A stretch of 64,000 nt of DNA. Origin: Candidatus Gottesmanbacteria bacterium. Its GTDB lineage: Bacteria > Patescibacteriota > Microgenomatia > UBA10105 > UBA927. The translations under genes and the position numbers were made by a program. Each line of letters starts with the position of its first letter. Position 1 is the first letter of the stretch. Below the pieces are notes generated by a model. It made no database searches. It was not told where the DNA came from and saw only the letters and a program-made list of their open reading frames with translations. The stretch spans positions 104,392 through 168,391 of the forward strand of contig CAWEKC010000005.1 of the NCBI GenBank assembly GCA_963809665.1, written 5' to 3'. Positions 19,247 to 60,216 of the stretch are shown piece by piece.

Positions 19247-19250
19247 AGCG

Positions 19251-23122: not shown

Positions 23123-23227
23123 AGATTGAATGCAAACATTCCCCGATTGACGTCGAGGGGATCATTTTTATTTTACGGGTGTTTTTTTTACTGCGCAATA
23201 GCACAAAGCGCATCAGGACCGTGAAAA

Positions 23228-23256
23228 CTTAAAAATTTTCCGTGAAAATTTTTAAG
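23228..23256. promoter_or_regulatory. perfect 13-bp inverted repeat in the divergent intergenic region between the T4SS-like cluster and nadD
   Basis: cttaaaaattttc-cgt-gaaaatttttaag; the motif CGTGAAAA occurs twice. Confidence 0.4.
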
Positions 23257-23300
23257 CCCGAGCTTGCCGAGGGATCTACCACCTATGGTACAATTGTCTC

Positions 23301-24624: not shown

Positions 24625-24668
24625 TCCAACCTCTTGCTTGCGTGACACCTCCGTGACGCGATACAATC

Positions 24669-28403: not shown

Positions 28404-28407
28404 TAGT

Positions 28408-29820
28408 CTATCCTTCTTCTGCGGGAGGCGGTGGGGGATTGCCTTTGCCAGCCTCAATAGCATTATGAAGATCTCTATTACTTTGTAGTGTTTGTTTTTG
28501 AATTTTGTGGCTGGATATCATGCTTCCGATTTGAACTGCCTGCATGGCAATACCGCTTGCAGCACCCAGTCCTCCGCCCGTTCCGCCAAGAAGCGATTTA
28601 GTTTTAAGTGCCTGCTTGATGGAATTGGCCATACCCGGAATAGTGAGAAGTATTCCCAGACCGATAACTCCGATCCACCCCGAAGATCCTCCATTAGCGA
28701 GGAGCGGCGGGGTCCAGAGTTTGGTTGCACCCTGATCAAAATTGGCTAATATTGTCCCGACCATAAGCATCGCAGCGGTAACGGGGAATACGGCAATATT
28801 GGAAATTAAATTTTTGAACCACGACGAGAAGCCCGTACCGCCGGGGAATGCCTCGGTGAGAATTTGCAGCGGACCGATGAGCACGCTGATAAGAATTTGT
28901 ATATACGCGCCTACTAGCATAAATAATATACGAATCCACGCAATGACTAGTACAAGCGATACGATAATTGAAATGAGTGCACCGATGACCGGGGCGAGCG
29001 CACCCTCCGCGGCACCGGTAGCGCCTGCAGTAATGCCGCCGGTGAGAAGATCTGTAATGTTATTGACAGCAGCAAATCCCCCCCCGAACACCGCACTAAA
29101 GAGATTCCAGAATCCTCCGTTCACGTATGTTGATCCCGTTGTTGGCGCTAGTGCGCCGTTACTGACGGGAATCAACAGTGATGCGATGAGCGCGATCATC
29201 AAATACATGAGGTCAATCATAAATCCGACAATCGCATAAGAAAACGTAATCAGAAGAAGGGTAACGACGATTTTCGGTAGCGCATTCTGGACCGTCACAA
29301 CGGTCTTCGGATCGATTTTCTTCCGGAACATAACCATAAAACCAATAACAACCATCACGACCGCAAGCAGGGCATAGGCAATATTACGGAATCCCTTCCA
29401 GAGAGGAAGAAGAACGGAGAGACCGCTGAACCCGATTCCCTGCGCATTCACCTGACGCGGCATGAATCCGAGCGTTTGTCCGGTATCCCGTATCCACAGA
29501 GCCAGATCCGCAGGGGGATTGTTATACATGGCTACTGCCACGTTTTGCATTGAAGCAATTGCGCTCTTACCGTAATAGAATGCGCTTGCAGGGTTTGAGC
29601 TGCAGCCTGTAGCCATGCACGAGAATGTGTTCATGTAGAGCACCTGGGTATTTACGGTATACACTTCTTTGCTCATTTGTCCATTTTGAGATTTTTGGTC
29701 TACAACCGCGCCGAATTCTTCTGCGCTGGGCGCCGGATTAATCGCTTGTGCGTGGGCTGCCGGCACAAAAATCCAGCCAGTGAGAATGAGAACGAGGAAT
29801 ACGAGCAGCGTACGCTTCAT
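28408..29820 (-). CDS. VirB6/TrbL-like polytopic membrane protein with a signal peptide and a Pro-rich C-terminus
   Basis: Signal peptide MKRTLLVFLVLILTGWIFVPAAHAQA, a ~130-aa periplasmic segment, then at least six TM helices; it sits immediately upstream of the pilin array. Confidence 0.5.
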   Translation of the reverse strand: MKRTLLVFLVLILTGWIFVPAAHAQAINPAPSAEEFGAVVDQKSQNGQMSKEVYTVNTQVLYMNTFSCMATGCSSNPASAFYYGKSAIASMQNVAVAMYNNPPADLALWIRDTGQTLGFMPRQVNAQGIGFSGLSVLLPLWKGFRNIAYALLAVVMVVIGFMVMFRKKIDPKTVVTVQNALPKIVVTLLLITFSYAIVGFMIDLMYLMIALIASLLIPVSNGALAPTTGSTYVNGGFWNLFSAVFGGGFAAVNNITDLLTGGITAGATGAAEGALAPVIGALISIIVSLVLVIAWIRILFMLVGAYIQILISVLIGPLQILTEAFPGGTGFSSWFKNLISNIAVFPVTAAMLMVGTILANFDQGATKLWTPPLLANGGSSGWIGVIGLGILLTIPGMANSIKQALKTKSLLGGTGGGLGAASGIAMQAVQIGSMISSHKIQKQTLQSNRDLHNAIEAGKGNPPPPPAEEG

Positions 29821-29859
29821 AGATCTATTATGCTAACTATGTTGGTATGAGTCAATGTG

Positions 29860-30180
29860 TTAATAGCTGGGGATGGTAAATTGTGTGACATCTACGCCGG
29901 TAAATAAAGAAATCGTTTTCAGTATCAGGTAGGCAACAACGATAATAACGACGCCGGTGATAGCCGCCGTCAGCGTACCGCGCGCTTTCTCAAGTTTTTT
30001 CTGGTCTCCGCCGGATAACAGGAATCCGTAGCCCCCGACGATGAGCATCACAAATAAAGCAACGCCCACAAGCGCGGTGAGCGCCTGAACAACGCTGATA
30101 AATATCGGCTCAAAACATTTGAATGTTGCCACGTCCTGTGCATTTGGAAGTGTTGAGAAGCATCCTGACCAATCAGCCAT
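29860..30180 (-). CDS. TrbC/VirB2-like pilin family protein, copy 1 of a six-gene tandem array
   Basis: ~100 aa with two hydrophobic helices flanking the conserved motif LLSGGDQKKLEKARGTLTAAITGVVIIVVA. Confidence 0.55.
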   Translation of the reverse strand: MADWSGCFSTLPNAQDVATFKCFEPIFISVVQALTALVGVALFVMLIVGGYGFLLSGGDQKKLEKARGTLTAAITGVVIIVVAYLILKTISLFTGVDVTQFTIPSY

Positions 30181-30231
30181 GCAAACATTATCACGCAGAT
30201 TACGTTAGTAGGCAAGAGACAAGAGAGCGGT

Positions 30232-30561
30232 TTAGAACGGTGACGGTATTGAGATTGATCCGCCGATGATCTGTATGCCCAGGAAGTTCTGGACCAGAAT
30301 CATGACAGCCCATGCGGCGCCGACGATTATAAGTCCGACAATCGCGTGGGTAATTTTATTGCGGGCTGCTTCCATACCGGCTTTGTCGCCGCCGGACGTG
30401 ATCCACTGAATACCGCCCAGGATCAGGAAGAAGAACGCCATGAGTGCCGCAAGGATAAGGAGGAGACCGACGAGCGCACTGATGAGTTTCCCGATATCGC
30501 CGATTTTTACGTTCGTGGGTTGCGGGATAGTAATTTCTGCCTGTGCAAATACCTTTTCCAT
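30232..30561 (-). CDS. TrbC/VirB2-like pilin family protein, array copy 2
   Basis: ...ITSGGDKAGMEAARNKITHAIVGLIIVGAA. Confidence 0.55.
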   Translation of the reverse strand: MEKVFAQAEITIPQPTNVKIGDIGKLISALVGLLLILAALMAFFFLILGGIQWITSGGDKAGMEAARNKITHAIVGLIIVGAAWAVMILVQNFLGIQIIGGSISIPSPF

Positions 30562-30635
30562 AATTCCTCCTTATAACGATCGGTTTCTATTATATCCTTG
30601 CTCTCATTGTTGCGCAACCGTCTTCGGTTTGTCAA

Positions 30636-30992
30636 CTATTGATTAATGCCCGGAATGGTGAGGTGCGTGAGTTCAATACCGAAAAATCGTCCGACCAGCG
30701 TCATGATGGCGAACGCCGCCGCCACAATCACCAGCCCCATGATGGCGTTGGTGATACCATTCCGTGCCTTTTCAAGTGCCTGTTTATCTCCGCCCGCGGT
30801 AATCCATTGAAGGCCGCTGGTAATAAGAGTCATGAACGCGAGTAAGAACGCCGCGATAAACAGCGCACCGATCAGATTGCTGATAAGCAGTCCCAGCGCG
30901 TTGCCGCCCTGGCTTACATCAGGGTGTGAACCGCCCCCTAAAGCGGGAGGCAGGATGGGATTCCGGATTTGCGCAAGAAAATTTATTCTCAT
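30636..30992 (-). CDS. TrbC/VirB2-like pilin family protein, array copy 3
   Basis: ...ITAGGDKQALEKARNGITNAIMGLVIVAAA. Confidence 0.55.
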   Translation of the reverse strand: MRINFLAQIRNPILPPALGGGSHPDVSQGGNALGLLISNLIGALFIAAFLLAFMTLITSGLQWITAGGDKQALEKARNGITNAIMGLVIVAAAFAIMTLVGRFFGIELTHLTIPGINQ

Positions 30993-30995
30993 ACC

Positions 30996-31379
30996 TTATT
31001 TAATTTGTAATTGTTCTATGATTTTTGCGGGATCGCCGACAAGAATGTCATAGCCCAGGAACTGACCGACCGTCGCAATGATGATCCATGCGGCAACGAC
31101 GATAATGAGTCCGAAAAACCCGTTCATGATCCGCTGCCTGGCAGTTGTGAGCTTTTTTACGTCGCCCGCGCTGGAGATCCACTCATATCCGCCGAAGAGG
31201 AGCTGGAATAAAAACCAGATGCTGCCGGCGATCGTCATAAACCCGACGATTGCCGAAATAGCGTTGGTTACCTGGATAAGCGCTCCTGTGCCCGTTGTGG
31301 CGGGGTTTTTGCCGAATGGCCCCAATCCTTCACCCCCGATAGGGCCGAGCGGAACCTGTGTTTGTGCAAGAAGTGTCAT
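30996..31379 (-). CDS. TrbC/VirB2-like pilin family protein, array copy 4
   Basis: ...ISSAGDVKKLTTARQRIMNGFFGLIIVVAA. Confidence 0.5.
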   Translation of the reverse strand: MTLLAQTQVPLGPIGGEGLGPFGKNPATTGTGALIQVTNAISAIVGFMTIAGSIWFLFQLLFGGYEWISSAGDVKKLTTARQRIMNGFFGLIIVVAAWIIIATVGQFLGYDILVGDPAKIIEQLQIK

Positions 31380-31744
31380 GGGTTGGGTGCGTAAATCTTG
31401 GGATTTAAAATAAATCCTGCATCGCCGAATAATAAATATCCGAAGAGAGCGGCAAGAGCAAACGATCCGACGACAAGGATAAGTCCTATCAGCGACTGCC
31501 AGATTTTACTCATGGCTTTTTCAATCGCTTTGGAATCTCCGCCGGCACTCATAAATTGGAATCCCGCTAGGATAAGGTTAAAAAAGGCGAATAATCCCGC
31601 TACTACAAATACAAGCCGGAGAATATTAGTCAAAAACACTGTAAGACCACCGATGCCCCGATATGCTGGAGCAATCTGGTCGTTTGTGACCTTCCCGACA
31701 ATACTGGTTGCGTCCTGTGCGAATATTTTTTCTATACCGATCAT
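31376..31744 (-). CDS. TrbC/VirB2-like pilin family protein, array copy 5
   Basis: ...MSAGGDSKAIEKAMSKIWQSLIGLILVVGS. Confidence 0.5.
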   Translation of the reverse strand: MIGIEKIFAQDATSIVGKVTNDQIAPAYRGIGGLTVFLTNILRLVFVVAGLFAFFNLILAGFQFMSAGGDSKAIEKAMSKIWQSLIGLILVVGSFALAALFGYLLFGDAGFILNPKIYAPNP

Positions 31745-31749
31745 AATTA

Positions 31750-32133
31750 TTACAGTCCGACTATCTGCTTTAACATGGGCGAGCCCGTTATGGTGGCGAT
31801 CACCTGTACGATAAGTACAGACAGTACGACAATAAGAAGTCCTATGACCGCGCCGGTTATCGCATTTTTTCCCTGATTGGTTTGTTTTGCATCACCGCTC
31901 CCTGTTCCCATAATAACGCCGAATCCGCCTATAATCAATAAAACAAAGCTGATAATGCCGGCAAACACGACGGCATTTTTGACGATAAGGGTTACAATTT
32001 GACCAAAATCTGTAAATGTAGCCGCCGGAGCGAAAACGTTAGGGTCACCAATATTTACAGCCATGCATTTAGTGTACGGGAGTGTGATTCCACTGTCAAT
32101 TTGTGCTATAGTTATAGCCTGTGGACGACGCAA
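31750..32133 (-). CDS. TrbC/VirB2-like pilin family protein, array copy 6; probably starts at the internal Met (MAVNIGD, ~32064) rather than overlapping the sigma-factor start
   Basis: ...IMGTGSGDAKQTNQGKNAITGAVIGLLIVVLS. Confidence 0.5.
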   Translation of the reverse strand: MRRPQAITIAQIDSGITLPYTKCMAVNIGDPNVFAPAATFTDFGQIVTLIVKNAVVFAGIISFVLLIIGGFGVIMGTGSGDAKQTNQGKNAITGAVIGLLIVVLSVLIVQVIATITGSPMLKQIVGL

Positions 32134-32660
32134 ACATCATCCCTAAGATTCTTGCGCGCGACCGGCAGGCACTGCTGATATTTTACCGCAGGTATGCCCC
32201 GAAGCTCTCGCGTTTTATTGCCGGAAAGATCGCAAATCCGGCAGACGCGGAAGAGGTTTTGCAGGATACGCTCTACGCATTTCTGGAGGCTATCCGCGAT
32301 TTTCAGGGAAAGAGTAACATCCAGACCTTCTTATTTTCCATTTGCCAGCACAAAGTTATCGATTATTACCGGAGAAAGAAGCTGAAACACGCAGTCTTTT
32401 CCCAGATGCCGCAGCTTGAGGCGATTATTTCGCCGCTCGTAAGTCCCGAAGAACAGCTGGACGCCGTCCTGGTGCGTGAGAAAATCCATGCGGTATTGGG
32501 TAGGCTCTTGCCGCGCCACCGCCAGATACTGATGCTTAAATATCTGGACGGATTGTCCGTTGAGGAAATTGCAAAACGCCTGGCCATGACATTTAAGAGT
32601 GTCGAGTCCCAGCTTTTCCGGGCGCGCAAAGCCTTTGTTGAATATTTTATATCCATATGA
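32121..32660 (+). CDS. ECF-type RNA polymerase sigma factor (sigma-70 regions 2 and 4)
   Basis: Region 2 LQDTLYAFLEAIRDFQGKSNIQTFLFSICQHKVIDYYRRK; region 4 LSVEEIAKRLAMTFKSVESQLFRARKAFVEY. Confidence 0.8.
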   Translation: MDDANIIPKILARDRQALLIFYRRYAPKLSRFIAGKIANPADAEEVLQDTLYAFLEAIRDFQGKSNIQTFLFSICQHKVIDYYRRKKLKHAVFSQMPQLEAIISPLVSPEEQLDAVLVREKIHAVLGRLLPRHRQILMLKYLDGLSVEEIAKRLAMTFKSVESQLFRARKAFVEYFISI

Positions 32661-32887
32661 CCAATACCACATATCAGAAGTTTGTAAAGCGGTGGGAAGA
32701 GGTGACGGATCTGCCGCCGCAGACGGTGGGGCCGTTCACACCTCTCTATAAAGCAATTGCCCGGCGGCTTAAGGTTATGCCATGGCCGGTACTGGTGTTT
32801 TCAGCTGTCATTGTGGTTATCGGATTGTATTTACTTATCGGCTCTGCTATTACGCTCCTTGTCTCCATCCTCCAGCGAGGGTTTTAA
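32657..32887 (+). CDS. small single-pass membrane protein translationally coupled to the ECF sigma factor; candidate anti-sigma factor
   Basis: ATGA overlap with the sigma-factor stop; 76 aa with a short cytoplasmic N-terminus and then one TM helix. Confidence 0.35.
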   Translation: MTNTTYQKFVKRWEEVTDLPPQTVGPFTPLYKAIARRLKVMPWPVLVFSAVIVVIGLYLLIGSAITLLVSILQRGF

Positions 32888-32914
32888 CTCACACGTTACG
32901 ACTAATACGTATAC

Positions 32915-33532
32915 ATGGAAACATCGCTTATTGTCGCGCTCGTTGAATTCAGCAGGAATATTATAGGACTTGTTACCCGTCCATATGAGACTTGCCGCAG
33001 GATTGCGGATCGCGGTGGATTTGGAGAACTTGTATATGTAGCGGTACTTCTTTCCGTATATTTCGCTTTTGCGTCACTCGTAAAAGTTGCTTCATTCCGG
33101 CCGTTTTTACTTTCCCGCCAGTTTATCGTTCTTTGTGCTGCGACGGGGGGAACATATCTTTTTGCCGTTGCGCTTTTTTGGACGGCGGGAAAGTTGGTTG
33201 GGGCCCACGGACGGTTGAAGGGCCTTGCCGTCCTGTGGGGATATTCGCTTCTGCCTACGCTTCTTTGGTTTTTCACTACGTCTCTCCTATATCTTCTGTT
33301 GCCTCCGCCACGCACAACAAGCGTCCAGGGCATTCTTTTCAGTGTGTTATTCCTCGTGTTTTCCACCACGTTGTTATTATGGAAAATGACGATTGCGTAT
33401 TTATCACTCCGGTTCGGGCTCAGGCTGGGTTTAGGAAAAATTCTGGTTATATTGGTGGTCTCACTCCCGATTCTGGGACTGTATAGCTATTGGCTGTATC
33501 ATTTAGGGATATTCAGAATTCCATTTTTATGA
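32915..33532 (+). CDS. polytopic membrane protein, possibly Yip1-family-like
   Basis: 205 aa with ~5 TM helices; an ATGA overlap with the next gene. Confidence 0.4.
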   Translation: METSLIVALVEFSRNIIGLVTRPYETCRRIADRGGFGELVYVAVLLSVYFAFASLVKVASFRPFLLSRQFIVLCAATGGTYLFAVALFWTAGKLVGAHGRLKGLAVLWGYSLLPTLLWFFTTSLLYLLLPPPRTTSVQGILFSVLFLVFSTTLLLWKMTIAYLSLRFGLRLGLGKILVILVVSLPILGLYSYWLYHLGIFRIPFL

Positions 33533-34650
33533 ATATGAGGGATTACAAAACCGTTTCGGAAAGACGCAAGGCTTTTGAGAAAAAGCTTACCATAGATTTG
33601 AAACATATAGGCGCCTTTACGCTGGATGAATCGGCTGCTTCGACACGGAATTGCGAAAACATGATCGGCGCGGCACAGATACCCATAGGTGTTGCCGGCC
33701 CGCTTCGTATTACACATAAGGATTATTACGTACCGCTTGCAACGACCGAGGGGGCGCTTGTGGCATCCGTCAACCGCGGATGCAAGGCTATTACAGCATC
33801 AGGAGGTGCAATGGTTGACAGCTACAGGGTGGGTGCTACCCGCGGACCGGTATTTAAAGTAAAAAATCTCAAAGAAAGTGGTGAACTGAATGCTTTTTTG
33901 GTGAAAAATTTTGCGGAGTTTCAGAAGATTGCCGCTCAAACGTCACATCATCTCACATTGAAAAAATATATGGATCGCGGGGTAGGGCGATATCGCTATG
34001 TGCGTTTTGTTTTTGACACCCAGGATGCCATGGGCATGAACATGGTGACCATTGCGACGCAAAAACTTGTTAAGTTCATTGAAACACAAACGACAGCGCG
34101 CTGTATTTCTTTAGCAGGTAATTATGATGTGGACAAAAAGCCCTCGTGGCTCAACGTTATTGAAGGGCGTGGTGTCAAGGCGTGGGCAGAGGTCACAATT
34201 CCGGAGAGAATTCTACGGGGCGTATTAAAAGCCACCGCACAGAAAATGTATGACGTGTGGCTTGCCAAATGCATGATAGGATCGGCGATGTCCGGCTCGA
34301 TGGCGTTTAATGCGCACTATGCAAACATTGTTGCAGCGCTGTTTTTAGCAACAGGCCAGGATATTGCACATGTTGTGGAAGGAAGTTTAGGGATAACAAC
34401 AGCGGAGGTTATACAAAAAGATCTGTATGTAAGTGTGTATCTGCCGGATCTCATGGTCGGCACCGTCGGCGGAGGAACAGGGCTGGCGACCCAGCGTGAA
34501 GCATTGAAACTTTTTGGCGCGCAGGATAGCAGAAATTTTGCTGAAGTTATAGCGGGCACGGTTTTGGCAGGAGAAGTATCACTGTTGGCATCATTGTCCG
34601 AAGGGACACTGGCAAAAGCGCACAAAACGTTAGCAAGGGGAGGGAACTAA
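33529..34650 (+). CDS. hmgA: 3-hydroxy-3-methylglutaryl-CoA reductase (short archaeal/bacterial class I type)
   Basis: ENMIGAAQIPIGVAGPLRI...TTEGALVASVNRGCKAI...DAMGMNMV...GTVGGGT; the start is set at the ATGA junction MNMRDYK. Confidence 0.85.
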   Translation: MNMRDYKTVSERRKAFEKKLTIDLKHIGAFTLDESAASTRNCENMIGAAQIPIGVAGPLRITHKDYYVPLATTEGALVASVNRGCKAITASGGAMVDSYRVGATRGPVFKVKNLKESGELNAFLVKNFAEFQKIAAQTSHHLTLKKYMDRGVGRYRYVRFVFDTQDAMGMNMVTIATQKLVKFIETQTTARCISLAGNYDVDKKPSWLNVIEGRGVKAWAEVTIPERILRGVLKATAQKMYDVWLAKCMIGSAMSGSMAFNAHYANIVAALFLATGQDIAHVVEGSLGITTAEVIQKDLYVSVYLPDLMVGTVGGGTGLATQREALKLFGAQDSRNFAEVIAGTVLAGEVSLLASLSEGTLAKAHKTLARGGN

Positions 34651-35726
34651 TGGTCGGGATCGTTTCATACGGTACATATATTCCGGAGTATCGGATTAAA
34701 CTTGCCGATATTGCCTCGGCGTGGAAAAAGGACCCCCGGGAAGTGGTGGGATCATTAGGGGTCGAAGAAAAATCAGTGCCTGGCACGGATGAAGATGCGG
34801 TTACTATCGCGCTACAAGCCGCATTCAATAGTCTGGCGGCGTTTCGGGGAAAGCCTGCGGACATAGAAGCATTGTTCGTAGGTTCGGAAAGTCATCCGTA
34901 TGCCGTGAACCCCACTTCAACAATTGTCGGAGAACTATTGGGAGTCGGACACAATTATTTGGCAGCGGATCTGGAATTTGCCTGTAAGGCGGCAACTGCC
35001 GGTATACAGGCGGTTGCGGGACTTATTGAGTCCGGACAGACGGGCTTTGGTTTGGTCATCGGGGCGGACACTGCCCAAAGCAAGCCGCATGACGCGCTGG
35101 AGTATACCTCGGCGGCAGCGGGAGCCGCGTATCTTATGTCTGGCGAAGCTAGATCTCGCTCCGCGAGATCCGAGAAACAACAGCTCATTGCCAAGCTTCT
35201 CGCATACACGTCCTATTCCTCGGATACACCTGACTTCTGGAGGCGTGACGGTATCCGGTATCCCTCCCACGCCGGTCGGTTTACCGGTGAACCGGCATAT
35301 TTTGCGCACGTTATAGGGGCGGCAACCCGATTACTTACCAAGACTCATACGAAACCGGAGGATTTTGATTATTGTGTATTCCATATGCCTAACGGTAAGT
35401 TTCCGCGTGATGTTGCCCGCAGGCTGGGTTTTAGTAAAGAACAATTGTCTGCGTCCCTGACGGTGGATCACATCGGCAATCCGTACGCCGCGTCTGCCAT
35501 GCTGGGGCTTGCCGCAGTACTGGACAGAGCAAAACCGGGAGAGAAGATATTCATGACGTCGTATGGGTCTGGTGCCGGTGCGGACGCTTTTGTCTGGGAA
35601 ACGACCCCGCTATTGTCGCGGGTGCAAAGGATCCGCGGCAAGCGGGGTGATTTAGTCACCCAACAGATAGTGAAAAAAAATTACATCAATTATGTTGAGT
35701 ATTTGAAGCAGACACACAAAATATGA
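34650..35726 (+). CDS. HMG-CoA synthase, archaeal type
   Basis: MVGIVSYGTYIPEYRIKLADIASAWKKDP...GSESHPYAVNPTSTIV...FACKAATAG is characteristic of archaeal HMGCS. Confidence 0.85.
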   Translation: MVGIVSYGTYIPEYRIKLADIASAWKKDPREVVGSLGVEEKSVPGTDEDAVTIALQAAFNSLAAFRGKPADIEALFVGSESHPYAVNPTSTIVGELLGVGHNYLAADLEFACKAATAGIQAVAGLIESGQTGFGLVIGADTAQSKPHDALEYTSAAAGAAYLMSGEARSRSARSEKQQLIAKLLAYTSYSSDTPDFWRRDGIRYPSHAGRFTGEPAYFAHVIGAATRLLTKTHTKPEDFDYCVFHMPNGKFPRDVARRLGFSKEQLSASLTVDHIGNPYAASAMLGLAAVLDRAKPGEKIFMTSYGSGAGADAFVWETTPLLSRVQRIRGKRGDLVTQQIVKKNYINYVEYLKQTHKI

Positions 35727-36863
35727 ACGTATTTATAACCGGGGCAGCAACAACAAAATTCGGGGAGTTGTGGGCAACGTCACCCCGCCGGCTGGCGGGT
35801 GAGGCTGTCGGCAACGCACTGAAAGATGCCGGCATTGGTATCCGGCGGGTTCATGCACTATTCGTCGGAAACATGTTATCCGGTATTCTTGCCGGACAGG
35901 AGCATTTAGGTGCGTTTTTCGCCGAAGAATTAGGCCTTACCGTTCCCGCTTTTAAAGTAGAAGGCGCATGTGCATCCGGAGGCCTTGCGCTACATAACGC
36001 GGTAAACAGCGTCCTGTCAGGCCAATATGATACCGTGGTTGTTCTTGGGGTGGAGAAAATGACGGACCATAAACCGGAAGATGTCGCCACAGCCCTCATG
36101 GGTGCGGGATCGGAAGAAGAACGGGTGGCAGGTGCAACCTTCCCGGGTTTATATGCAATTCTCGCACGTGCGCACATGATGGAATACGGGACGACCCGGG
36201 AGCAGCTTGCCGCGGTTGCCGTCAAAAATCATTATCATGCATCCTTAAACCCAAACGCGCAATTTCACACAACCATTACCATTGAACAGGTTGCACAGAA
36301 GCCCACGTATTGCCGACCCTTTACGGCTTCTGGATTGTTCGCCCATTTCAGACGGCGCATCAGCAGTTGTGGTAAGTAATAAGAAATCGTCACACGGTAT
36401 TACTATTGCAGCAAGCACTGTCGCGACGGATTCATTGGGACTTGCGAAGCGAGCATCTTTAACACAACTTGCTGCAACCAAGGAATCAGGAAAACGCGCA
36501 TACACTAAGGCTGCCATTTCACCTGAGGATGTTGATGTTGCGGAGGTCCATGATTGTTTTACGATTGCCGAAATACTTGCGATGGAAGATTTGGGTTTCT
36601 ATGCAAAAGGAAAAGCCACCGCCGCGATTATGGCCGGCGAAACGCAGTTGGGGAAATCCCACCATTTGGTTGTTAATCCATCCGGTGGGCTTAAAGGATG
36701 CGGGCATCCGGTAGGAGCCACAGGGATTAAACAAGTGGTGGAACTAGTGGAGCAGTTGCGGGGGAGGGCCGGAGTACGTCAAGTAAAACAAGCGAAGATT
36801 GGTTTAGCACATAATGTGGGAGGTTCAGGAGCAACCGCCGTTGTGCATATTTTAAAAAAATGA
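35723..36863 (+). pseudogene. acetoacetyl-CoA thiolase (archaeal-type thiolase partner of HMGCS) interrupted by a single-nucleotide frameshift near 36298-36300
   Basis: ORF 35723..36379 (..KVEGACASGGLALHNA..) and ORF 36282..36863 (..IADPLRLLDCSPISDGASAVVV..) are in frames +2 and +0; deleting one a from cagaagccc restores the contiguous thiolase sequence EQVAQSPRIADPLRLLDCSP. Confidence 0.7.
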
Positions 36864-37165
36864 ATACGCAGAGTCCGGTAAAAATTTGGAGAAACCAGAA
36901 ATATATCGCGGGCATGCTCGGGCGTGAGGGCACTATTGTTTCCTGGACGGTCGTCCGCGTGCCGCCCGGCGGGTTTTCGAGCCTTGCCCCGTATCCGGTT
37001 GTTGTTGTTGACATAGGAGGAGACGGAAGAATTATCGCTCAACTGGTTGACTGGACTGAAAATGATTTAGCTGCCGGGCGAAAAGTCCGGGTTGTGGTAC
37101 GGCGCATATCCGAGCCCACAACCGAGGGTGTTATCCCGTACGGGATTAAAGTGAAACCCGTTTAA
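36860..37165 (+). CDS. DUF35 OB-fold protein, the scaffold subunit of the archaeal thiolase/HMGCS complex
   Basis: 101-aa ORF with an ATGA overlap with the thiolase stop; ...EGTIVSWTVVRVPPGGF...PYPVVVVDIGGDGRIIAQLVD is a DUF35-type OB fold. Confidence 0.65.
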   Translation: MNTQSPVKIWRNQKYIAGMLGREGTIVSWTVVRVPPGGFSSLAPYPVVVVDIGGDGRIIAQLVDWTENDLAAGRKVRVVVRRISEPTTEGVIPYGIKVKPV

Positions 37166-37175
37166 TGGTTTATAT

Positions 37176-38087
37176 ATGAAAATTACAGTATCGGTTCCCG
37201 GAAAAATATATTTGATGGGCGAGCATGCGGTGGTGTACGGAAGACCGGCTCTGCTTTCTGCAATAAACCTCCGTTTATCCGTTTCCGTTGAGCCGGCAAA
37301 ATCTCTGAAAATTATCTCAACGGAGTCTTCCGATTATGTACGCCATGCCGCGGAGTTTGTATCGAAAGAATACGACCTGCAGAAACCGCTAAACGTCAAA
37401 ATTACCGTCACATCGGATATTCCTGCGGGGTATCATCTGGGCTCATCAGCCGCGGTAGCGGTCGCGGTGGTCGGCGCACTGACGTATTATCTGAAAAAAG
37501 TCTGGAATCCGCAGATCGCGAATCAATTAGCCTATGAAATCGAGAAAAAACAACACGGAAATCCGTCGGGCGCTGATAACACGATGGTCACCTCGGGAGG
37601 GTTTTTGTGGTATAGAAAAGAGCTTGAGTTTTTACGGAGTTTTTGGCAGTTACCCTTCAAAATGCCCTCCACGTTACACCATTTTTTTCTCATTGATACG
37701 GGACGGCCGAAAGAAAATACGGGGAAGATGGTTGCGCTGGTCCGTGCGGAATATCAAAAGCACGTATCGCGCTACAAAAAATTATTTGATAAAAATGAAG
37801 ATCAGACAAAACGGATTGCCGTTGCGTTAAAAGAAGGGGATGAAAAAGCATTGATTTCGTCCATGAGGTATGGACAGAGGACACTTGAAGAAATGGGAGT
37901 TGTGAGTAAAAAAATTACTCCCCTCATCAGAAAGATAGAACGGGCAGGAGGAGCGGCAAAAATTCTAGGTGGAGGAGGACGGACCGCGGGAGTAGGTTAT
38001 CTATTATGCTATTCCCACCCGCGGCCGGGCGGCGGCATACCGATTACGTTGGGAGAAGAAGGGATACGGTTGGAAAAAAATATATGA
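37176..38087 (+). CDS. mvk: mevalonate kinase (GHMP kinase family)
   Basis: VSVPGKIYLMGEHAVVYGRPAL and the GHMP motif PAGYHLGSSAAVAVAVVGAL. Confidence 0.7.
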   Translation: MKITVSVPGKIYLMGEHAVVYGRPALLSAINLRLSVSVEPAKSLKIISTESSDYVRHAAEFVSKEYDLQKPLNVKITVTSDIPAGYHLGSSAAVAVAVVGALTYYLKKVWNPQIANQLAYEIEKKQHGNPSGADNTMVTSGGFLWYRKELEFLRSFWQLPFKMPSTLHHFFLIDTGRPKENTGKMVALVRAEYQKHVSRYKKLFDKNEDQTKRIAVALKEGDEKALISSMRYGQRTLEEMGVVSKKITPLIRKIERAGGAAKILGGGGRTAGVGYLLCYSHPRPGGGIPITLGEEGIRLEKNI

Positions 38088-38995
38088 CAATCAGCGCACC
38101 CGGAAAACTCATGCTGTTTGGAGAACACGCCGTCGTGTACGGTCATCCGTGTATTACGACCGCAGTGGACATCCGGCTATCAGTTTCCATTGAGTCTACC
38201 GGTGACGGAAAAATCACGATCAATGCGCCGGAGGTGAAAGACACGCGTTTTGTCGATGCGGCGATTACACTTGCGACTAACGAGTGGCATATTCGGCACA
38301 ACGGATTCCGCCTTTCGACCAAAAGTCCGTTTTCCGGATGCTACGGATTTGGTTCATCTTCAGCCGTGACGGTAGCCACGCTGAAAGCTCTGGCCGGCCT
38401 GGGTAATACAGATATTGATGAGCGGAAACTATTTGATGCTGCCTACAATATAGTCCTGTCCATACAGGGTACCGGGTCGGGATTTGACGTGGCATCAGCG
38501 GTATACGGCGGGACGTTATATTTTTTAAAAGGCGGCAAGGTCATTGATCCGCTTGCGGTGGATGATATGCCGCTGGTTATCGGGTATACCAAAGTAAAAA
38601 GCAATACGGTGGATGTTGTCAAAATGGTGGCAGGTAAACAGGAAAAGTATCCGGAAAAAGTGAACAGGATCTTCTTAGGGATTGCCGAACTCGTGGATCA
38701 GGCGAAGGCAGAGATCCTTGCAGGAGACTGGGAGCGCGTCGGCAGGCTCATGGATTTTGACCAGGAGTATCTGCGCGATCTCGGGGTAAGTTCGGAAAAA
38801 TTAGAGGCACTGATTACCGCAGCCAAAAGCGCGGGGGCATGGGGAGCAAAGCTATCAGGTGCAGGGTGCGGGGACTGTATGATTGCCCTTGCCTCACCGG
38901 ATACGCGGGTAGCGGTAGAAGAGGCCATAACCGGCGCCGGCGGAGAGGTAGTGCGGGTTTCCCCGAATGCAGAAGGGGTAAGGATAGATCCATGA
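38084..38995 (+). CDS. second GHMP-family kinase, probably phosphomevalonate kinase
   Basis: ISAPGKLMLFGEHAVVYGHPCITTAV and GFGSSSAVTVATLKALAGL; ATGA-coupled on both sides. Confidence 0.55.
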   Translation: MTISAPGKLMLFGEHAVVYGHPCITTAVDIRLSVSIESTGDGKITINAPEVKDTRFVDAAITLATNEWHIRHNGFRLSTKSPFSGCYGFGSSSAVTVATLKALAGLGNTDIDERKLFDAAYNIVLSIQGTGSGFDVASAVYGGTLYFLKGGKVIDPLAVDDMPLVIGYTKVKSNTVDVVKMVAGKQEKYPEKVNRIFLGIAELVDQAKAEILAGDWERVGRLMDFDQEYLRDLGVSSEKLEALITAAKSAGAWGAKLSGAGCGDCMIALASPDTRVAVEEAITGAGGEVVRVSPNAEGVRIDP

Positions 38996-39912
38996 AAGCG
39001 ACGGCGAAAGCGCCCGCAAACATCGCATTCATTAAATATTGGGGCAAGAAAAATGCCCGGTTACACCTGCCGTACAATGCCTCCATTTCGATGAACTTAA
39101 GCAAATGTACGACAACAACAACCGTAGAGTTTTCAGAGGATTTCGGAGAAGATGTAGTTTCTACGGGTTTCAATAAGAAAAGAATCATTGCGCATATTGA
39201 CCGGTTGCGGACATTAGCAGGCAACCGGCAAAAAGTACGTGTAACGACAAAAAATTCCTTCCCGACATCTGCCGGTATTGCGTCATCTGCGTCCGGATTT
39301 GCAGCGCTAACGATGGCAGCGGCCTCGGCGTTAGGATTAAAACTTTCCGAAAAGGAATTAACTGGTCTTGCGCGCCTCGGGTCCGGGTCCGCCTGCAGGA
39401 GTATTCCTGACGGATTTGTGAAGTGGGAGGACTCTTTTGCGTATTCGTTATACCCGCCGGAGTATTGGGACATACGGGATATTCTTCTCATTGTCGACAA
39501 GTCACAAAAACACGTGGCTTCTGCCTTGGGGCACGAGGGCGCAACTACAAGCCCGTATTTCGGCATGAGACTGGAGAGGCTGCTCGGTAGGATTGCGCGC
39601 ATAGAAGAAGCATTACGGAGGAAAAATTTTCAGGTATTCGGTGAGGTAACCGAGGAGGATTGCTTAGATATGCACCATGTCATGCAGACGCAGCAACCTC
39701 CGCTTATGTATTGGAATGATGCGACGAGGAAGATTATGAGTGATGTTATTGCCTGGAGAAAACAAGGAATATCCGCATACTTTACGATCGACGCCGGACC
39801 GAATGTACACCTGATTTGTGAAGGAAAAGACGAGAAACGTATTACGGATAAAATTGGAACTACATATCAAATTATTGTAAATAAGCCGGCACGGGGAGCG
39901 CACATTATATGA
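38992..39912 (+). CDS. mvaD: diphosphomevalonate decarboxylase
   Basis: APANIAFIKYWGKKN, NSFPTSAGIASSASGFAALTMAAA and GSGSACRSI. Confidence 0.8.
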   Translation: MKATAKAPANIAFIKYWGKKNARLHLPYNASISMNLSKCTTTTTVEFSEDFGEDVVSTGFNKKRIIAHIDRLRTLAGNRQKVRVTTKNSFPTSAGIASSASGFAALTMAAASALGLKLSEKELTGLARLGSGSACRSIPDGFVKWEDSFAYSLYPPEYWDIRDILLIVDKSQKHVASALGHEGATTSPYFGMRLERLLGRIARIEEALRRKNFQVFGEVTEEDCLDMHHVMQTQQPPLMYWNDATRKIMSDVIAWRKQGISAYFTIDAGPNVHLICEGKDEKRITDKIGTTYQIIVNKPARGAHII

Positions 39913-40580
39913 TTCCAAAACATATTGCCATAATTATGGACGGAAACCGACGGTGGGCCCGGGTGCACAATCTGCCGGTCCTTGAGGGGCACCGGCGCGT
40001 TGCCAATGAGGTGCTGGAAAAATTAGTGGAACACGCAGCGGCGCGCGGCGTGAAGTATCTGACATTTTGGGCGTTTTCCACGGAAAATTGGCATCGTGCA
40101 CCGGACGAGGTGAAAGGAATTATAACGATACTAAAGCAAAGTATCGGATATTTCGGCAAGCGGATGCATAAGAAAGGAGTGCGGTTATTGGCTATCGGAG
40201 ATCTTTCAGGGTTTGACAGCCAATTGCAGCGTTCTATTACGTCCGTAGTAGCGTTAACCCAACACAACAAGAAAATTACCGTCATCATCGCATTGAATTA
40301 CGGCGGAAGGGATGAAATTATCCGTGCGGTTAAGAAAATTACACGCCCTGATATGGTTACGGAAGAGGAAGTCTCGCACCTATTGGACACCCGCGGTATA
40401 CCTGATCCGGAATTACTCATACGGACCGGCGGCGAACAGCGCCTGAGCGGTTTTTTACCGTGGCAGAGTGTGTACAGTGAGCTCTATTTTCCAGCGTGGT
40501 ATATGCCTGATTTTACACCTCTACGATTAGACGAGGCGATTGAAGAGTATGCGCACCGGCATCGAAGATTTGGGAAATAA
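39909..40580 (+). CDS. uppS: undecaprenyl-diphosphate synthase (cis-prenyltransferase)
   Basis: HIAIIMDGNRRWA...LTFWAFSTENWHR...RTGGEQRLSGFLPWQSVYSELYF. Confidence 0.9.
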   Translation: MIPKHIAIIMDGNRRWARVHNLPVLEGHRRVANEVLEKLVEHAAARGVKYLTFWAFSTENWHRAPDEVKGIITILKQSIGYFGKRMHKKGVRLLAIGDLSGFDSQLQRSITSVVALTQHNKKITVIIALNYGGRDEIIRAVKKITRPDMVTEEEVSHLLDTRGIPDPELLIRTGGEQRLSGFLPWQSVYSELYFPAWYMPDFTPLRLDEAIEEYAHRHRRFGK

Positions 40581-40583
40581 TTA

Positions 40584-40934
40584 CTAAGGGACTCTGGGAA
40601 AGACACTGTTTATGGATTCAAGCCCGAAGATGGTGCCGACAAGCTGGACAATCCAGTATGCGGCAAACACGATGAAAAACCCCACGATTGCATTTGTGAG
40701 CTGCTGTTTTCCCTGTTGCATTTTTTTTGCATCACCCGCGCTGGTTAAAAACGTATAGCCGGCGGAAATCAGCATGAGGAGTAATCCCAGTCCTGCAAAC
40801 GCCATTACTAAAGGAACTGCAGTAGAGAGAATGGCGCCGATGGTCGGGTTGGGTCCAGCTCCAGGAATATTGAGTGGGCCTTTTAGAGTGTTGCCGCCCG
40901 GCAGAGTTAAATTTTGTGCCAATAGGTTGTGCAT
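40584..40934 (-). CDS. TrbC/VirB2-like pilin family protein (seventh paralog, outside the main array)
   Basis: ...LTSAGDAKKMQQGKQQLTNAIVGFFIVFAA has the same motif as the six-gene array. Confidence 0.5.
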   Translation of the reverse strand: MHNLLAQNLTLPGGNTLKGPLNIPGAGPNPTIGAILSTAVPLVMAFAGLGLLLMLISAGYTFLTSAGDAKKMQQGKQQLTNAIVGFFIVFAAYWIVQLVGTIFGLESINSVFPRVP

Positions 40935-40938
40935 ACTA

Positions 40939-42120
40939 TTATAAAAACCCAGGAATACCGAGGATAGTTACCCCGATAAGCCGCAATATAAATATTGAAA
41001 AGATTATAATGAGCAATCCCGTGATGGCGCTGGTGACCAGTTCTTTTCCGGCATTGAGTCTTTCCGGGTTTCCGCCGCTCATGAGTATCTGGAACCCACC
41101 GAAGAGAATGAGGAGAAACGCAATCCCGCCGCCGATACCCACCCCGATCCCGATAACTTGCCCAATGAAGGTGGCCGGATCAGTCGGGATGCATCCAAAA
41201 GCTGTCCACGCATGTAGCCCATCGGCCATGCACGCGTGACACGTATCAACGTTGGTTCCGGCAAATTCACAGACTTTGGTTGCTTGGTCAGAACTCGATT
41301 TTTTTACACAGCACCCGCTCGCCAGACATAGACCGATATCCCAGGCTTCATCCGGCAGTTTCTGATTGCAGTCTTGATTAGTCGTACAGACTCCTCTTCG
41401 ACCGTCACTTGTTTTGCAGGTTTGACCGAGGGTTGGCCTCTTTGTTTCCGGTGATCCAGGTCTGGCTGCGCAGCAGCCGGGTATTGCTGTAAGTTTATAC
41501 ACATCCATACATTGGTCAGGATCTGGATTAAAATTAATATTTGAATTATCTTTATTACACTCGGTAAAGAGTGAACATAACCCCGGCCAGCTTTCCGTCT
41601 TACTTATTATGAGCGTGCAGGTTTTTTGTCCTGTTGTGACGGGTTTTGTTGCGCAGCAGCCGCCTGCCTTACATGTTTTCCTGTCCCACACCCCATTATC
41701 CTGAAAGTCAATAACTAAGCAGTTAAACGTGTCTGTACAGATACCCGGCCATGTGTTTCCGGCGGTACATTTCTCACCAATGCCAGGCAACGCAGCATCG
41801 GGTGTTCCCGGTTTGATTCCGCAACAGCCGACGGGGTATCCCTTATCCGGATTCTCATCAGGCATGCATGTTGTGACTGCCGAATCCCATTTTCTATTGC
41901 CGCTTGATACGATACAATCCTGTTTTATTACACACTGTCCTGACCAGGCAGGGTCGTTGATGGTGGTACAAGGATCCCCAACGTGTTCATATTTTTGACC
42001 TGGTCCATACGGATCGGCTGCATGTGCTTTTGTCGCGAGCATTCCAAAAATTCCGGTGGCTAAAATGAAGAATAAGGAGGTCAGAATAACCTTTTTAAGC
42101 ATACGATATAAGTGTATCAA
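40939..42120 (-). CDS. secreted Cys-rich protein (~33 Cys) with a C-terminal TrbC/VirB2-like pilin domain; putative pilus-associated adhesin or minor pilin
   Basis: Signal peptide MIHLYRMLKKVILTSLFFILATGIFGMLATKAHA; recurring motifs such as GCCxxKP/GCCA; C-terminus GGFQILMSGGNPERLNAGKELVTSAITGLLIIIFS matches the pilin motif. Confidence 0.5.
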   Translation of the reverse strand: MIHLYRMLKKVILTSLFFILATGIFGMLATKAHAADPYGPGQKYEHVGDPCTTINDPAWSGQCVIKQDCIVSSGNRKWDSAVTTCMPDENPDKGYPVGCCGIKPGTPDAALPGIGEKCTAGNTWPGICTDTFNCLVIDFQDNGVWDRKTCKAGGCCATKPVTTGQKTCTLIISKTESWPGLCSLFTECNKDNSNINFNPDPDQCMDVYKLTAIPGCCAARPGSPETKRPTLGQTCKTSDGRRGVCTTNQDCNQKLPDEAWDIGLCLASGCCVKKSSSDQATKVCEFAGTNVDTCHACMADGLHAWTAFGCIPTDPATFIGQVIGIGVGIGGGIAFLLILFGGFQILMSGGNPERLNAGKELVTSAITGLLIIIFSIFILRLIGVTILGIPGFL

Positions 42121-43863
42121 ACATTTTTGTTAAACGCACGTGGTAAAATAGGAAGAATGAGAAAAATACTCCTCATATGCATGCTTCTTGCCGTATATTT
42201 TTTAACAGCCCCCCTGGTGTTTGCGCAGGAGTGTGATGCATCCAATATTTCTTCGATGAACTTGTCGGCACTTTCGGATATGGGCAACAAATGTCAGGAA
42301 GCGCTCAACAATCTTCAGAATGCGCTCAAGCCTAATGTTGACCAGCTCAACAAGATGAACGCAGCGATTGCCGCATTTGAGGCGCGCATCAAAACCATCG
42401 AAGCAGACGTGGCAGTAAAAACGCAGGAGATTGCCGTCGGCGAGCAGGAACTGGAGGCATCATTGACGCTGGCCAGTGAACGGATACGGCAGTTTTACAT
42501 GCGCAGTTATTCACTCAACCCTATGTATTTACTGCTTTCTTCCACAAATATCGGTTCGGTACTGCGGACGCTCGGGTATCAGCAGGCGGCAGTCAATGAG
42601 GATAAGAAAATCATTACCCAGACCGCCCTCACGGTGAAGGATCTCGAGGATAAAAAAAAGGCGCTGGAGGATGAGAAAACCACACTCGCCGCACTGAAAG
42701 CAGATACGGACAAAAGAGCAGAATCCGTCCGTAAACTTGTTGCAGAAGCGACCGCATACGAGAATAAATTACAGGGTGTTATATCTGCCGTGACGGCCGC
42801 CCAGCAGGCAATTCTGAATGCCCGCGGCGGCACGTTTACCACCAGTCTCGGTGACGTTCCTCTTGCGGATGATCCCAATGCGGCACCGAATTACAATCCG
42901 GGATTTTCCCCCGCGTTCGCCGGTTTTTCTTTCGGTGCGTATACGCACAAGAAAGGAATGAGCCAGTACGGCGCTAAAGGCAGGGCCCAACAGGGACAAA
43001 ACGCCAACCAGATTTTGCAGGCGTATTACGGGAAAACCCCCGTCAATAAGGATACCGGGGGAGACATCAGTGTTTCGGGGTTCGGTAACATGAATTTTGA
43101 GGACAGATATCTTATGGGTATTGCAGAAATGCCGTCAAGTTTTCCGAAAGAAGCGCTCAGGGCACAAGCTGTTGCGGCCAGAACATATGCATATCGTTAT
43201 AAAACACAGGGACAAACAATTTGTACGACACAAGCATGTCAGGTATTTTCCAGCTCAAAAGCGGATAATCCTCCGGGTGAGTGGAAAGATGCGGTTCAGA
43301 GTACGCGGGGACAGGTGATTGAGGATGTTGTGACGTATTATTCTTCAACAACAGGCGGGTATTTACTTACAATGGGATGGGATACAACGTGCGGCGGACA
43401 GGGGTGCTGGACCAGCGGCGCGTATGAAAGCATTGCCGGTTCCCCCTGGTTTTATAAAGGATGGTATACGTCGGATTACTACAACGATTCCGCCAAGTGC
43501 GGAAAAAGCAGCCCGTGGCTGACCCAGGAAGAATTCGCGGATATTTTGAACGCATGGCGTGTACTCAATAGCGGCGGCGATGCATCGCGCGTGTTGCCCA
43601 TAACATTGAATAGTTGCTCGATTTCCGGAGCTACCGGAAATCCATTTTCTATGGCAGAGATGCGCGCTGAAGCCGACGGGCACGGAGGTGCGTTCACAAG
43701 CGTTTCTTCTGTATCGGTCACCTATAGTACGGAGGGATATACCAATGCGGTTATAGTGAACGGCCAATCGATTCCGGGGGATCAATTTAAACAGGCATTT
43801 AATTTACGTGCCCCCGGCTATATTTCAATCAGGAGTTCTCTTTATAATATCGAGAAAAAATAG
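42112..43863 (+). CDS. secreted coiled-coil protein with a C-terminal SpoIID/LytB-like domain
   Basis: Signal peptide, ~230 aa of heptad coiled coil, then ...SQYGAKGRA...ALRAQAVAARTYAYRYK, a SpoIID-like motif. Confidence 0.5.
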   Translation: MYQTFLLNARGKIGRMRKILLICMLLAVYFLTAPLVFAQECDASNISSMNLSALSDMGNKCQEALNNLQNALKPNVDQLNKMNAAIAAFEARIKTIEADVAVKTQEIAVGEQELEASLTLASERIRQFYMRSYSLNPMYLLLSSTNIGSVLRTLGYQQAAVNEDKKIITQTALTVKDLEDKKKALEDEKTTLAALKADTDKRAESVRKLVAEATAYENKLQGVISAVTAAQQAILNARGGTFTTSLGDVPLADDPNAAPNYNPGFSPAFAGFSFGAYTHKKGMSQYGAKGRAQQGQNANQILQAYYGKTPVNKDTGGDISVSGFGNMNFEDRYLMGIAEMPSSFPKEALRAQAVAARTYAYRYKTQGQTICTTQACQVFSSSKADNPPGEWKDAVQSTRGQVIEDVVTYYSSTTGGYLLTMGWDTTCGGQGCWTSGAYESIAGSPWFYKGWYTSDYYNDSAKCGKSSPWLTQEEFADILNAWRVLNSGGDASRVLPITLNSCSISGATGNPFSMAEMRAEADGHGGAFTSVSSVSVTYSTEGYTNAVIVNGQSIPGDQFKQAFNLRAPGYISIRSSLYNIEKK

Positions 43864-60197: not shown

Positions 60198-60216
60198 TGT
60201 TTAGGTTCCTTAATAT

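Follow-up and report, generated by a model that had tools for sequence, protein, structure and literature searches.

The window analysed here is a stretch of 64,000 nucleotides from Candidatus Gottesmanbacteria bacterium (GenBank assembly GCA_963809665.1, contig CAWEKC010000005.1, positions 104,392 to 168,391 of the forward strand). Our subject is a minus-strand gene at 40939–42102, which we call the lead pilin, together with the short pilin gene p7 directly downstream of it. Comparison with related loci identifies the lead pilin as the first-position subunit of an eight-gene VirB2-like array that belongs to a monoderm-type type IV secretion system (T4SS) of Gottesmanbacteria and other Microgenomates, members of the ultra-small Patescibacteria. 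In architecture it is a mosaic: a Sec signal peptide is followed by an ectodomain cassette that can be replaced, then by a small conserved Cys neck, and last by the two-helix hairpin of a pilin. On balance, and with modest confidence, we favour the reading that this exported protein, anchored by its pilin part, serves the Patescibacteria T4SS as a specificity or adhesin subunit and is presented to the host cell. It is at present the best candidate for the host-contact protein of the system.

Anatomy of the lead pilin and its kinship with the short pilins

The features of the pair are as follows.

40939..42102 (-): lead pilin gene ('position 1'), 387 aa from ATG 42102; stop codon 40939-40941
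42019..42102 (-): Sec-type signal peptide MLKKVILTSLFFILATGIFGMLATKAHA, from a hydrophobicity scan; predicted cleavage AHA↓A (...ATKAHA↓A)
41821..41970 (-): six-Cys unit R1, Cys 51, 63, 69, 85, 99, 100 (393-aa numbering)
41653..41769 (-): six-Cys unit R2, Cys 118, 128, 134, 150, 155, 156 (393-aa numbering); the unit modelled by AlphaFold2 (AF2)
41470..41619 (-): six-Cys unit R3, Cys 168, 182, 188, 204, 216, 217; counterpart of unit 1 in two-unit relatives
41308..41418 (-): six-Cys unit R4, Cys 235, 245, 251, 265, 270, 271; counterpart of unit 2 in two-unit relatives
41173..41271 (-): conserved Cys neck ...CHACMADGLHAWTAFGCIPTDP, C284-x9-C294-x2-C297-x12-C310; precedes helix 1
41083..41172 (-): pilin helix 1, glycine-rich, IGIGVGIGGGIAFLLILFGGFQIL; from hydrophobicity, paralog alignment, AF2 model and hhalign
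41041..41082 (-): inter-helix polar loop MSGGNPERLNAGKE; S-G-G-D/N motif common to all paralogs
40942..41040 (-): pilin helix 2 and C-terminal IPGF(L) tail; from hydrophobicity, paralog alignment and AF2 model
40584..40934 (-): short pilin p7 ('position 2'), 116 aa; starts 4 nt past the lead stop

The lead pilin was initially annotated as a 393-aa gene. An open reading frame (ORF) of that length does exist at 40939-42120(-), from an alternative in-frame TTG at 42120, but translation almost certainly begins at the ATG at 42102: this is where the public gene call P0001 (387 aa, the exact protein) starts, and the N-termini of homologs (MVKKVILT...) line up with it. The 4-nt gap between the lead pilin and p7 indicates that the two are co-transcribed in the same operon. 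A scan of 40300-42500 found no sigma-70-like promoter, a result that is uninformative for this phylum.

The long gene does begin with an N-terminal hydrophobic signal sequence, as first described. What follows was taken to be one ~300-aa domain with ~33 cysteines in recurring GCC/CxxxC contexts; we find instead a Cys-rich region of ~250 aa that consists, in this genome, of four copies of a six-Cys mini-domain of ~45-57 aa. The cysteines of the protein number 28, 24 in the four units and four in the neck, and while GCC does recur, CxxxC does not: the spacing is C-x5-C plus one CxxC. The neck, ~33 residues (...AWTAFGCIPTDP) between the six-Cys units and the hairpin, is modelled by AF2 as two short helices and a beta-hairpin. 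Two hydrophobic segments, residues 317-346 and 361-388, are joined by the loop MSGGNPERLNAGKE and modelled as a hairpin of two long helices, and the C-terminal pilin motif of the initial annotation, MSGGNPERLNAGKELVTSAITGLLIIIFS, lies at residues 347-375. The general architecture proposed there, a disulfide-rich extracellular domain on a pilin-like anchor, is fully supported.

The annotation had suggested aligning the C-terminus with the seven short paralogs, and the similarity holds: blastp gives 22-37% identity to all seven (E 1e-8 to 1e-14) over an alignment that spans both hydrophobic helices and the S-G-G-D/N loop, and hhalign of lead-pilin anchors against the seven returns 98.2% probability (E 4.5e-14). 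We conclude from these alignments that the lead hairpin is homologous to the seven short pilins. p7 scores 41.5 bits against the Pfam family PF18895 T4SS_pilin, whose gathering score is 26.6 bits, so that its annotation as a pilin paralog, the seventh short one, stands. Within the lead-pilin family, 117/120 members match PF18895 at E<=1e-3 (best 3.5e-20). None of the eight pilin proteins matches PF04956 (VirB2/TrbC) at E<=0.1, and the lead pilin has no Pfam or NCBIfam match to a VirB5/TraC family domain.

Of the eight, the lead pilin alone has a signal peptide, and there is no coding room in which one could be encoded upstream of the seven short paralogs, as would be expected if a large N-terminal domain needs export and short N-tails do not. 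Six of the seven short pilins start with M-x(2-10)-[FLI]-A-Q followed by x-x-[TI]-[LI]-P, and an FAQ or YAQ motif closes the signal peptide in the lead pilins of related genomes; the FAQ motif of the short pilins may be the mark of a processed short leader or just a conserved N-terminal motif.

Conserved anchor and variable head across the family

A database search retrieved 206 relatives of the lead pilin, in which neck and hairpin retain ~60-80% identity and the ectodomains are unrelated. Scanning species-representative genomes with a profile of the anchor gave 269 loci, and our locus comparisons rest on the best 80 of them, nearly all from Gottesmanbacteria or other Microgenomates (Woese-, Shapiro-, Beckwith- and Roizmanbacteria). 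The window protein carries each element that defines this family, namely the signal peptide, the WTAxGC[IV]P neck, the GGIAFL...SxGNPE...GLLxIIFS hairpin and the IPGF tail, and it is likewise the first gene of its array with a short pilin downstream. The neck motif WTAxGCIPTDP is kept throughout. The Cys-rich domain, which was to be sought in other T4SS-like loci, gave a divided outcome: the anchor family is present in 269 loci, but the ectodomain type of the window is nearly an orphan.

Among 118 proteins, all 6,903 anchor pairs are alignable, with a median identity of 70.7%, while only 4.3% of ectodomain pairs are detectably similar, which leaves the heads in 46 clusters. The window anchor is 62-84% identical to those of family members. 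Across the loci, relatives match the window at a median identity of 62% in the anchor, 60% in the neighbouring UPP synthase (UPPS), 55% in MVD, 49% in p7 and 42% in the SpoIID-domain protein; on this comparison the lead hairpin comes out as the most conserved element of the neighbourhood, above its housekeeping neighbours.

The heads are rich in Cys, with a median of 8%, and 107/120 proteins (74/80 in the locus set) have an even number of Cys. Total length runs from 120 aa, which leaves signal peptide, neck and hairpin only, to 801 aa, and ectodomain size from ~0 to ~700 aa. Two members, L078 (4498-6903, 801 aa) and L081 (4435-6432, 665 aa), have an extra Cys-rich domain after helix 2 and IPGF, and such extensions support a topology with both termini outside the cell. 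Besides PF18895, the only Pfam matches in 120 ectodomains are to Defensin_beta_2 (two members) and Toxin_12 (one).

How heads differ between close species can be seen in the closest species-level relative, L038, from a complete Gottesmanbacteria chromosome (OY969569.1). Its SpoIID-domain protein, p7 and anchor are 92%, 84% and 82% identical to those of the window; its ectodomain is unrelated. At the DNA level the two lead genes align in two stretches only, one at the signal peptide (nt 1-41 of the window gene, 85%) and one at the neck and hairpin (nt 892-1164, 81%). The L038 head (gene 5629-6303) consists of two tandem 33-aa copies of a different six-Cys module, CIEDNQCKTLLQSCCSGNSVTVSAGICATTQKC, and these are identical at 99/99 nt, which points to a very recent duplication within the gene. 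Relatives that share the ectodomain type of the window have two, three or four units. Judged from these alignments, the head has been replaced and expanded between conserved flanks. Entire domains are exchanged, in place of single positions mutated within a constant fold, a pattern that does not point to diversification of the DGR type.

All four units of the window protein follow the spacing C-x9-13-C-x5-C-x13-15-C-x4-13-CC, and the consensus is G-x2-C-x-T-x3-5-W-P-G-x-C-x5-C-x5-7-[ND]-[IV]-x-[WF]-D-x2-4-C-x4-13-G-C-C-G, with six Cys invariant over 22 aligned units that come from the window protein and its closest relatives. When the ectodomain was shuffled 20,000 times, no shuffle gave three or more units (maximum two), so the four-unit pattern is not a product of chance. 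R1 and R2 form an extra N-terminal pair relative to the two-unit relatives. Outside the Cys the four units are 11-32% identical, and R1R2 and R3R4 have no DNA similarity, which means that the duplication in this genome is not recent. Elsewhere in the window we found no further copy of the unit, silent or otherwise.

An exhaustive HMMER search of the whole ectodomain against 1.84 billion representative proteins returned P0006 and P0121 only, one of them of the same family. With two matches in so many proteins we reject a known enzyme or common domain, and with it the concern, raised at annotation, that the region might be a known unrelated enzyme domain. The 22-unit profile had no match at E<=0.01 in a 5.8-billion-protein database, for the size of which it is too short. 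AF2 folds a single unit (from the 22-unit alignment) as strand-strand-helix-strand-strand with pLDDT 84.8 and pTM 0.63. Foldseek against the PDB found nothing for this model, and nothing better than E 1.9 for a model of R3, R4, neck and hairpin (pLDDT 65).

Sub-threshold matches of the unit profile to PDB sequences were the plant defensin NaD1 (E 0.08) and the PAP-2 clip domain (E ~1). Against AtDEF-like the window protein scores E 0.028 and 15.1 bits, under the cut-off, and it has no Pfam defensin or CLIP match. In the sibling P0036, whose unit differs from that of the window, residues 65-95 reach 26.9 bits against Defensin_beta_2 (PF13841; gathering 22.2) over the full-length profile, and Toxin_12, matched by another family member, is the spider-toxin knottin family. 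The units are near neutral (net charge -2 to +1), and on this ground we reject a cationic antimicrobial defensin.

The unit thus appears to be a small three-disulfide module that weakly resembles beta-defensins and clip domains, a likeness that may reflect either homology or convergence. With beta-defensin-fold peptides (helianthamide/magnificamide, APETx1) and arthropod clip domains it shares a six-Cys signature ending in CC and a G-x-C that precedes the second Cys. Classical beta-defensins have a consensus with shorter loops than those of the window units. Peptides of the helianthamide type have four strands and one helix (PMC6835510), as predicted for the window unit, and helianthamide is non-cationic too. 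Relative to beta-defensin-fold peptides, however, the loops here are longer, all scores fall below significance, and the units are tandem domains of a membrane-anchored bacterial protein, not free peptides. To our knowledge, the beta-defensin-type (trans-defensin) fold class is regarded as restricted to animals.

The split array and its neighbourhood

The remaining features of the locus are these.

32121..40580 (+): inserted block of 8.5 kb that splits the pilin array; from ORFs, Pfam and synteny
29860..32133 (-): short pilins p6, p5, p4, p3, p2 and p1 ('positions 3-8'); PF18895 matches
28408..29820 (-): polytopic VirB6-like membrane protein that closes the array; no Pfam match
21872-23122 (-): PrgI/VirB3-like protein, T4SS core
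21208-21906 (-): 232-aa ORF among the T4SS core genes
19251-21299 (-): VirB4 ATPase, CD1110 family, T4SS core
17018-19246 (-): M23 peptidase membrane protein, T4SS core
42157..43863 (+): secreted coiled-coil and SpoIID/LytB-domain protein; PF08486 E 8.9e-19, TIGR02669 94.2 bits

In the initial annotation the pair lay about 8 kb from the main array, next to the mevalonate operon. Both observations are right: the 8.5-kb block separates the pair from p6, and the UPPS gene at its end stops at 40580, 3 nt from the p7 stop codon. The pair is not a stray, however, but the first two genes of the array, displaced. The block encodes an ECF sigma factor, Yip1, HMG-CoA reductase, HMG-CoA synthase, thiolase, an OB-fold protein, three GHMP kinases/decarboxylase and UPPS, and contains a complete mevalonate operon.

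Gene order in relatives bears on how this arrangement arose. Five syntenic public contigs (L001-L005), and a sixth contig from JGI for which no DNA was available, have a common order: one strand carries a 599-aa protein, DUF5657, a PH-like protein and SpoIID, next come the lead and a short pilin in divergent orientation, and UPPS and the mevalonate operon converge upon these two. Most of the best 80 GTDB loci keep this order, with a short pilin directly downstream of the lead in 73/78. In L059, L071, L082 and L085 no block intervenes between p7 and p6, and p7 leads straight into six more pilins; a homolog of the VirB6-like gene follows the array in L071, L082 and L085, and L059 breaks off too early to show one. 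The eight genes recur in L083, where, as in the lineage of the window, p7 and p6 are parted by an insert, here a short one that contains UPPS.

These five loci have exactly eight pilin genes each, and the genes correspond by position: in 5/5 the lead maps to position 1, p7 to 2, p5 to 4, p4 to 5, p2 to 7 and p1 to 8, the mapping being less uniform for p6 (position 3 in 3/5) and p3 (position 6 in 4/5). Contiguity and position mapping together mark the pair as the head of the array. By this comparison, the block was placed between p7 and p6 in the lineage of the window, and the pair was ancestrally contiguous with p6-p1 and the VirB6-like gene. The positional orthology further speaks for the paralogs being non-redundant subunits and against their being interchangeable variants.

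Several loci depart from the common pattern or carry unexpected labels. Seven of the 80 have a tandem lead-type pair (L054, L055, L057, L072, L074, L078 and L081), in six of which a long member stands beside a minimal one (157-182 aa or less), while L054 has two short ones (165 and 166 aa). In L004 (GCA_040960095.1) a 434-aa DnaJ-domain gene at 11089-12393 is inserted between lead and short pilin. Many loci with perfect Gottesmanbacteria-type synteny (L008, L011, L014, L015, L023 and others) are labelled 'uncultured Gammaproteobacteria bacterium', and one such locus 'Candidatus Bathyarchaeia archaeon'; on these metagenome-assembled genome records the labels are evidently placeholders or wrong taxonomy.

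The SpoIID-domain gene, whose ORF is listed from GTG 42112 and probably starts at Met16 (42157), lies divergently next to the lead pilin in at least 57/67 loci. SpoIID/LytB domains are of the peptidoglycan lytic-transglycosylase type, and in published surveys most Patescibacteria with VirB2 homologs have no recognisable VirB1; this neighbour could be the wall-remodelling partner of the pilin array.

The T4SS core genes together occupy 17018..23122 (-). dnaA and dnaN (13350-16028, +) adjoin the T4SS locus (17018-32133), which matches the published observation that Patescibacteria T4SS clusters lie near the replication origin. We saw no relaxase or coupling protein in the window. Between the PrgI/VirB4 genes and the VirB6-like gene with its pilin array, on the opposite strand, sits a 1244-aa ORF (24669-28403, +) with a hydrophobic C-terminus and no Pfam match. 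A second large disulfide-rich surface protein is encoded near the T4SS locus at 8472-11525 (-): 1017 aa, secreted, with a segment dense in Cys (CSCAADxCxGSTCGDGCGGTC repeats) followed by Big_2 Ig-like domains. At the far end of the window, 60001-64000, G+C falls to 0.37-0.385 from ~0.49 elsewhere and most ORFs lack Pfam matches; this may be foreign or recently acquired DNA.

Proposed role, alternatives and known systems

If the lead pilin is a host-contact subunit, its life might run as follows. Sec would export the precursor, the signal peptide would be cut at AHA↓A, and the ectodomain would fold oxidatively outside the cell with ~14 disulfides. The hairpin would span the membrane so that its basic loop faces the cell interior and both termini lie outside, the topology of VirB2/TraA-type pilins. 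The T4SS, through VirB4 and the VirB6-like protein, would extract the lead and the seven short pilins into a surface filament or stalk, the lead being a low-copy, probably initiating and hence distal subunit that presents its ectodomain to the host cell. The ectodomain would set which host surface is recognised, and a determinant of this kind would explain the swapping of heads, the expansion of repeats and the diversification of surface residues on a fixed anchor. The adhesin reading also fits the essentiality of the pilin arrays of S. epibionticum (PMC10633639), and it would supply a component that is reported as missing from Patescibacteria T4SS loci, in which 'No adhesins ... were detected' (PMC12102498). 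Oxidative folding of the head is in keeping with genomes of the Candidate Phyla Radiation, which are reported to be enriched in MdbA-like disulfide oxidoreductases and VKOR (bioRxiv 10.1101/335083). The tip adhesin or minor pilin of the initial annotation agrees with topology, gene position and evolutionary pattern, which suggest that role rather than establish it.

A number of observations weigh against this reading. In 13/80 species the lead pilin is shorter than 150 aa and has almost no ectodomain, so that the conserved role must lie in neck and hairpin and cannot be adhesion itself, with the head an accessory. No known adhesin or lectin domain was found in 120 ectodomains. The last ~65 residues of the window protein score 25.6-25.7 bits (E 1.3e-5) against PF18895, only just short of the threshold of 26.6, and the anchor profile A4 matched no solved pilin among PDB sequences. 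The window encodes no disulfide oxidoreductase that we could find. The Patescibacteria T4SS pilus is hypothesised only and has never been visualised (PMC12857230), and a helical pilus lattice may have little room for an N-terminal domain of 250 aa, other than at the tip or at low copy. Finally, the hypervariability of the head could equally come from evasion of phages or predators.

The lead pilin could also be a static component, with the hairpin as a membrane anchor or a channel or platform subunit of the T4SS that stays in the membrane, and the ectodomain as an envelope spacer or shield across wall or S-layer, or as a T4SS docking site. We consider this possible, if rather unlikely. Gram-positive-type T4SSs are generally without pili (PMC10633639, PMC12102498), the glycine content and extreme conservation of helix 1 suggest that it packs tightly against invariant partners in the machine, lead pilins without ectodomain exist, and eight positional orthologs are suggestive of a complex of fixed stoichiometry rather than a homopolymer. 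Such a component would not, however, predict wholesale ectodomain replacement between close species or 46 unrelated types, and both the pilin-family homology and published structure-based pilin annotation point elsewhere. Were the six-Cys modules instead cleaved off to act on the host as toxins or enzyme inhibitors, with the pilin part serving export and targeting, one would have a precedent in helianthamide, which inhibits alpha-amylase. That P0036 passes the Defensin_beta_2 threshold and another member matches the knottin family Toxin_12 is in line with this, as is the fast-evolving surface on a fixed Cys scaffold, which is typical of toxins. Yet the units lack a cationic charge, we see neither a protease site nor a dedicated protease, many orthologs have beta-rich ectodomains that are not defensin-like or have none at all, and the conserved neck joins the head directly to the anchor; we hold a released effector to be highly improbable.

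Evasion, in which the head is a phage receptor or a target of host defence that is replaced to escape, and adhesion is incidental, predicts the same pattern of conserved anchor and replaced head, and analogies with antigenic variation have been invoked for VirB2 paralogs (PMC12102498). Acting alone, it should select for headless lead pilins, and these are a minority (13/80 species), whereas elaborate, disulfide-stabilised and repeat-expanded heads, some of ~700 aa, are kept. As the driving force we regard it as improbable, but it is compatible with the adhesin/specificity reading, and both can hold. A bolder form of the latter makes the lead pilin the host-specificity determinant of an eight-component heteromeric T4SS filament, with a cassette-exchanged head that here carries true beta-defensin-type (trans-defensin) domains. 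This is doubtful as a whole; if it holds, a pilin-borne adhesin would for the first time be on record for a T4SS.

Patescibacteria account for a large part of bacterial diversity, and they seem to live attached to the cells of a host. T4SS and pilin array are essential in the one species that is tractable, and no adhesin has been identified so far; with a first-position pilin that is conserved and bears an exposed, rapidly exchanged head, host specificity becomes approachable. A set of eight non-redundant subunits, each conserved in position, would change how essentiality data and structural models are read, and the defensin-like mini-domains are a curiosity for the evolution of small disulfide-rich folds.

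Pilin arrays of Patescibacteria and a monoderm-type T4SS beside dnaA are already published (Wang et al. 2023, PMC10633639; Quinonero-Coronel et al. 2025, PMC12102498), and the window carries one such array: PF18895 genes occur with VirB4 (CD1110/MPF-FATA-like), PrgI and a VirB6-like protein near dnaA/dnaN, and the paralogs are ~25-35% identical to each other, as reported. The published arrays are described as short variable paralogs, possibly serving antigenic variation or host range; the window array, in contrast, has eight positional orthologs, and its first gene stands apart as a class that combines a signal peptide and a Cys neck with an ultra-conserved hairpin and a replaceable ectodomain. 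In the literature searched we found neither the first-position pilin class nor the eight-position orthology nor the defensin-like modules.

The Gram-negative conjugative pilins VirB2, TrbC and TraA resemble the lead hairpin in having two helices and a polar basic loop and in occurring with VirB4 and VirB6; they differ in that the host of the window array is monoderm and that we see no match to PF04956 or to the sequence of a solved pilin. We know of no characterised VirB2-type pilin with a disulfide-rich N-terminal domain of ~250 aa. The role proposed for the lead pilin is that of tip adhesins of the VirB5/TraC/CagL type, which are low-copy, recruited first and carried to the pilus tip, and there make contact with the target cell. 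VirB5, however, is a soluble helical bundle and not a pilin, with no sequence or domain similarity to the lead pilin, and Patescibacteria have not been reported to possess it (PMC12857230).

Modular type IV pilins and minor-pilin/PilY1 tip complexes (PMC13533445) likewise combine a conserved pilin module with a variable functional one, and type IV minor pilins are a fixed set in conserved gene order that initiates the filament and presents a tip adhesin, a concept in common with our reading of the lead pilin. Their machinery and fold are unrelated (one N-terminal helix plus a globular head), and the functional module is C-terminal in modular type IV pilins but N-terminal in the lead pilin. The VirB2 families of Anaplasma and Bartonella have, as in the window, several divergent pilin genes per T4SS locus. 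Those paralogs are read as interchangeable variants, whereas the paralogs of the window are conserved in position, with orthologs across families, and this cross-family conservation argues for non-redundant roles.

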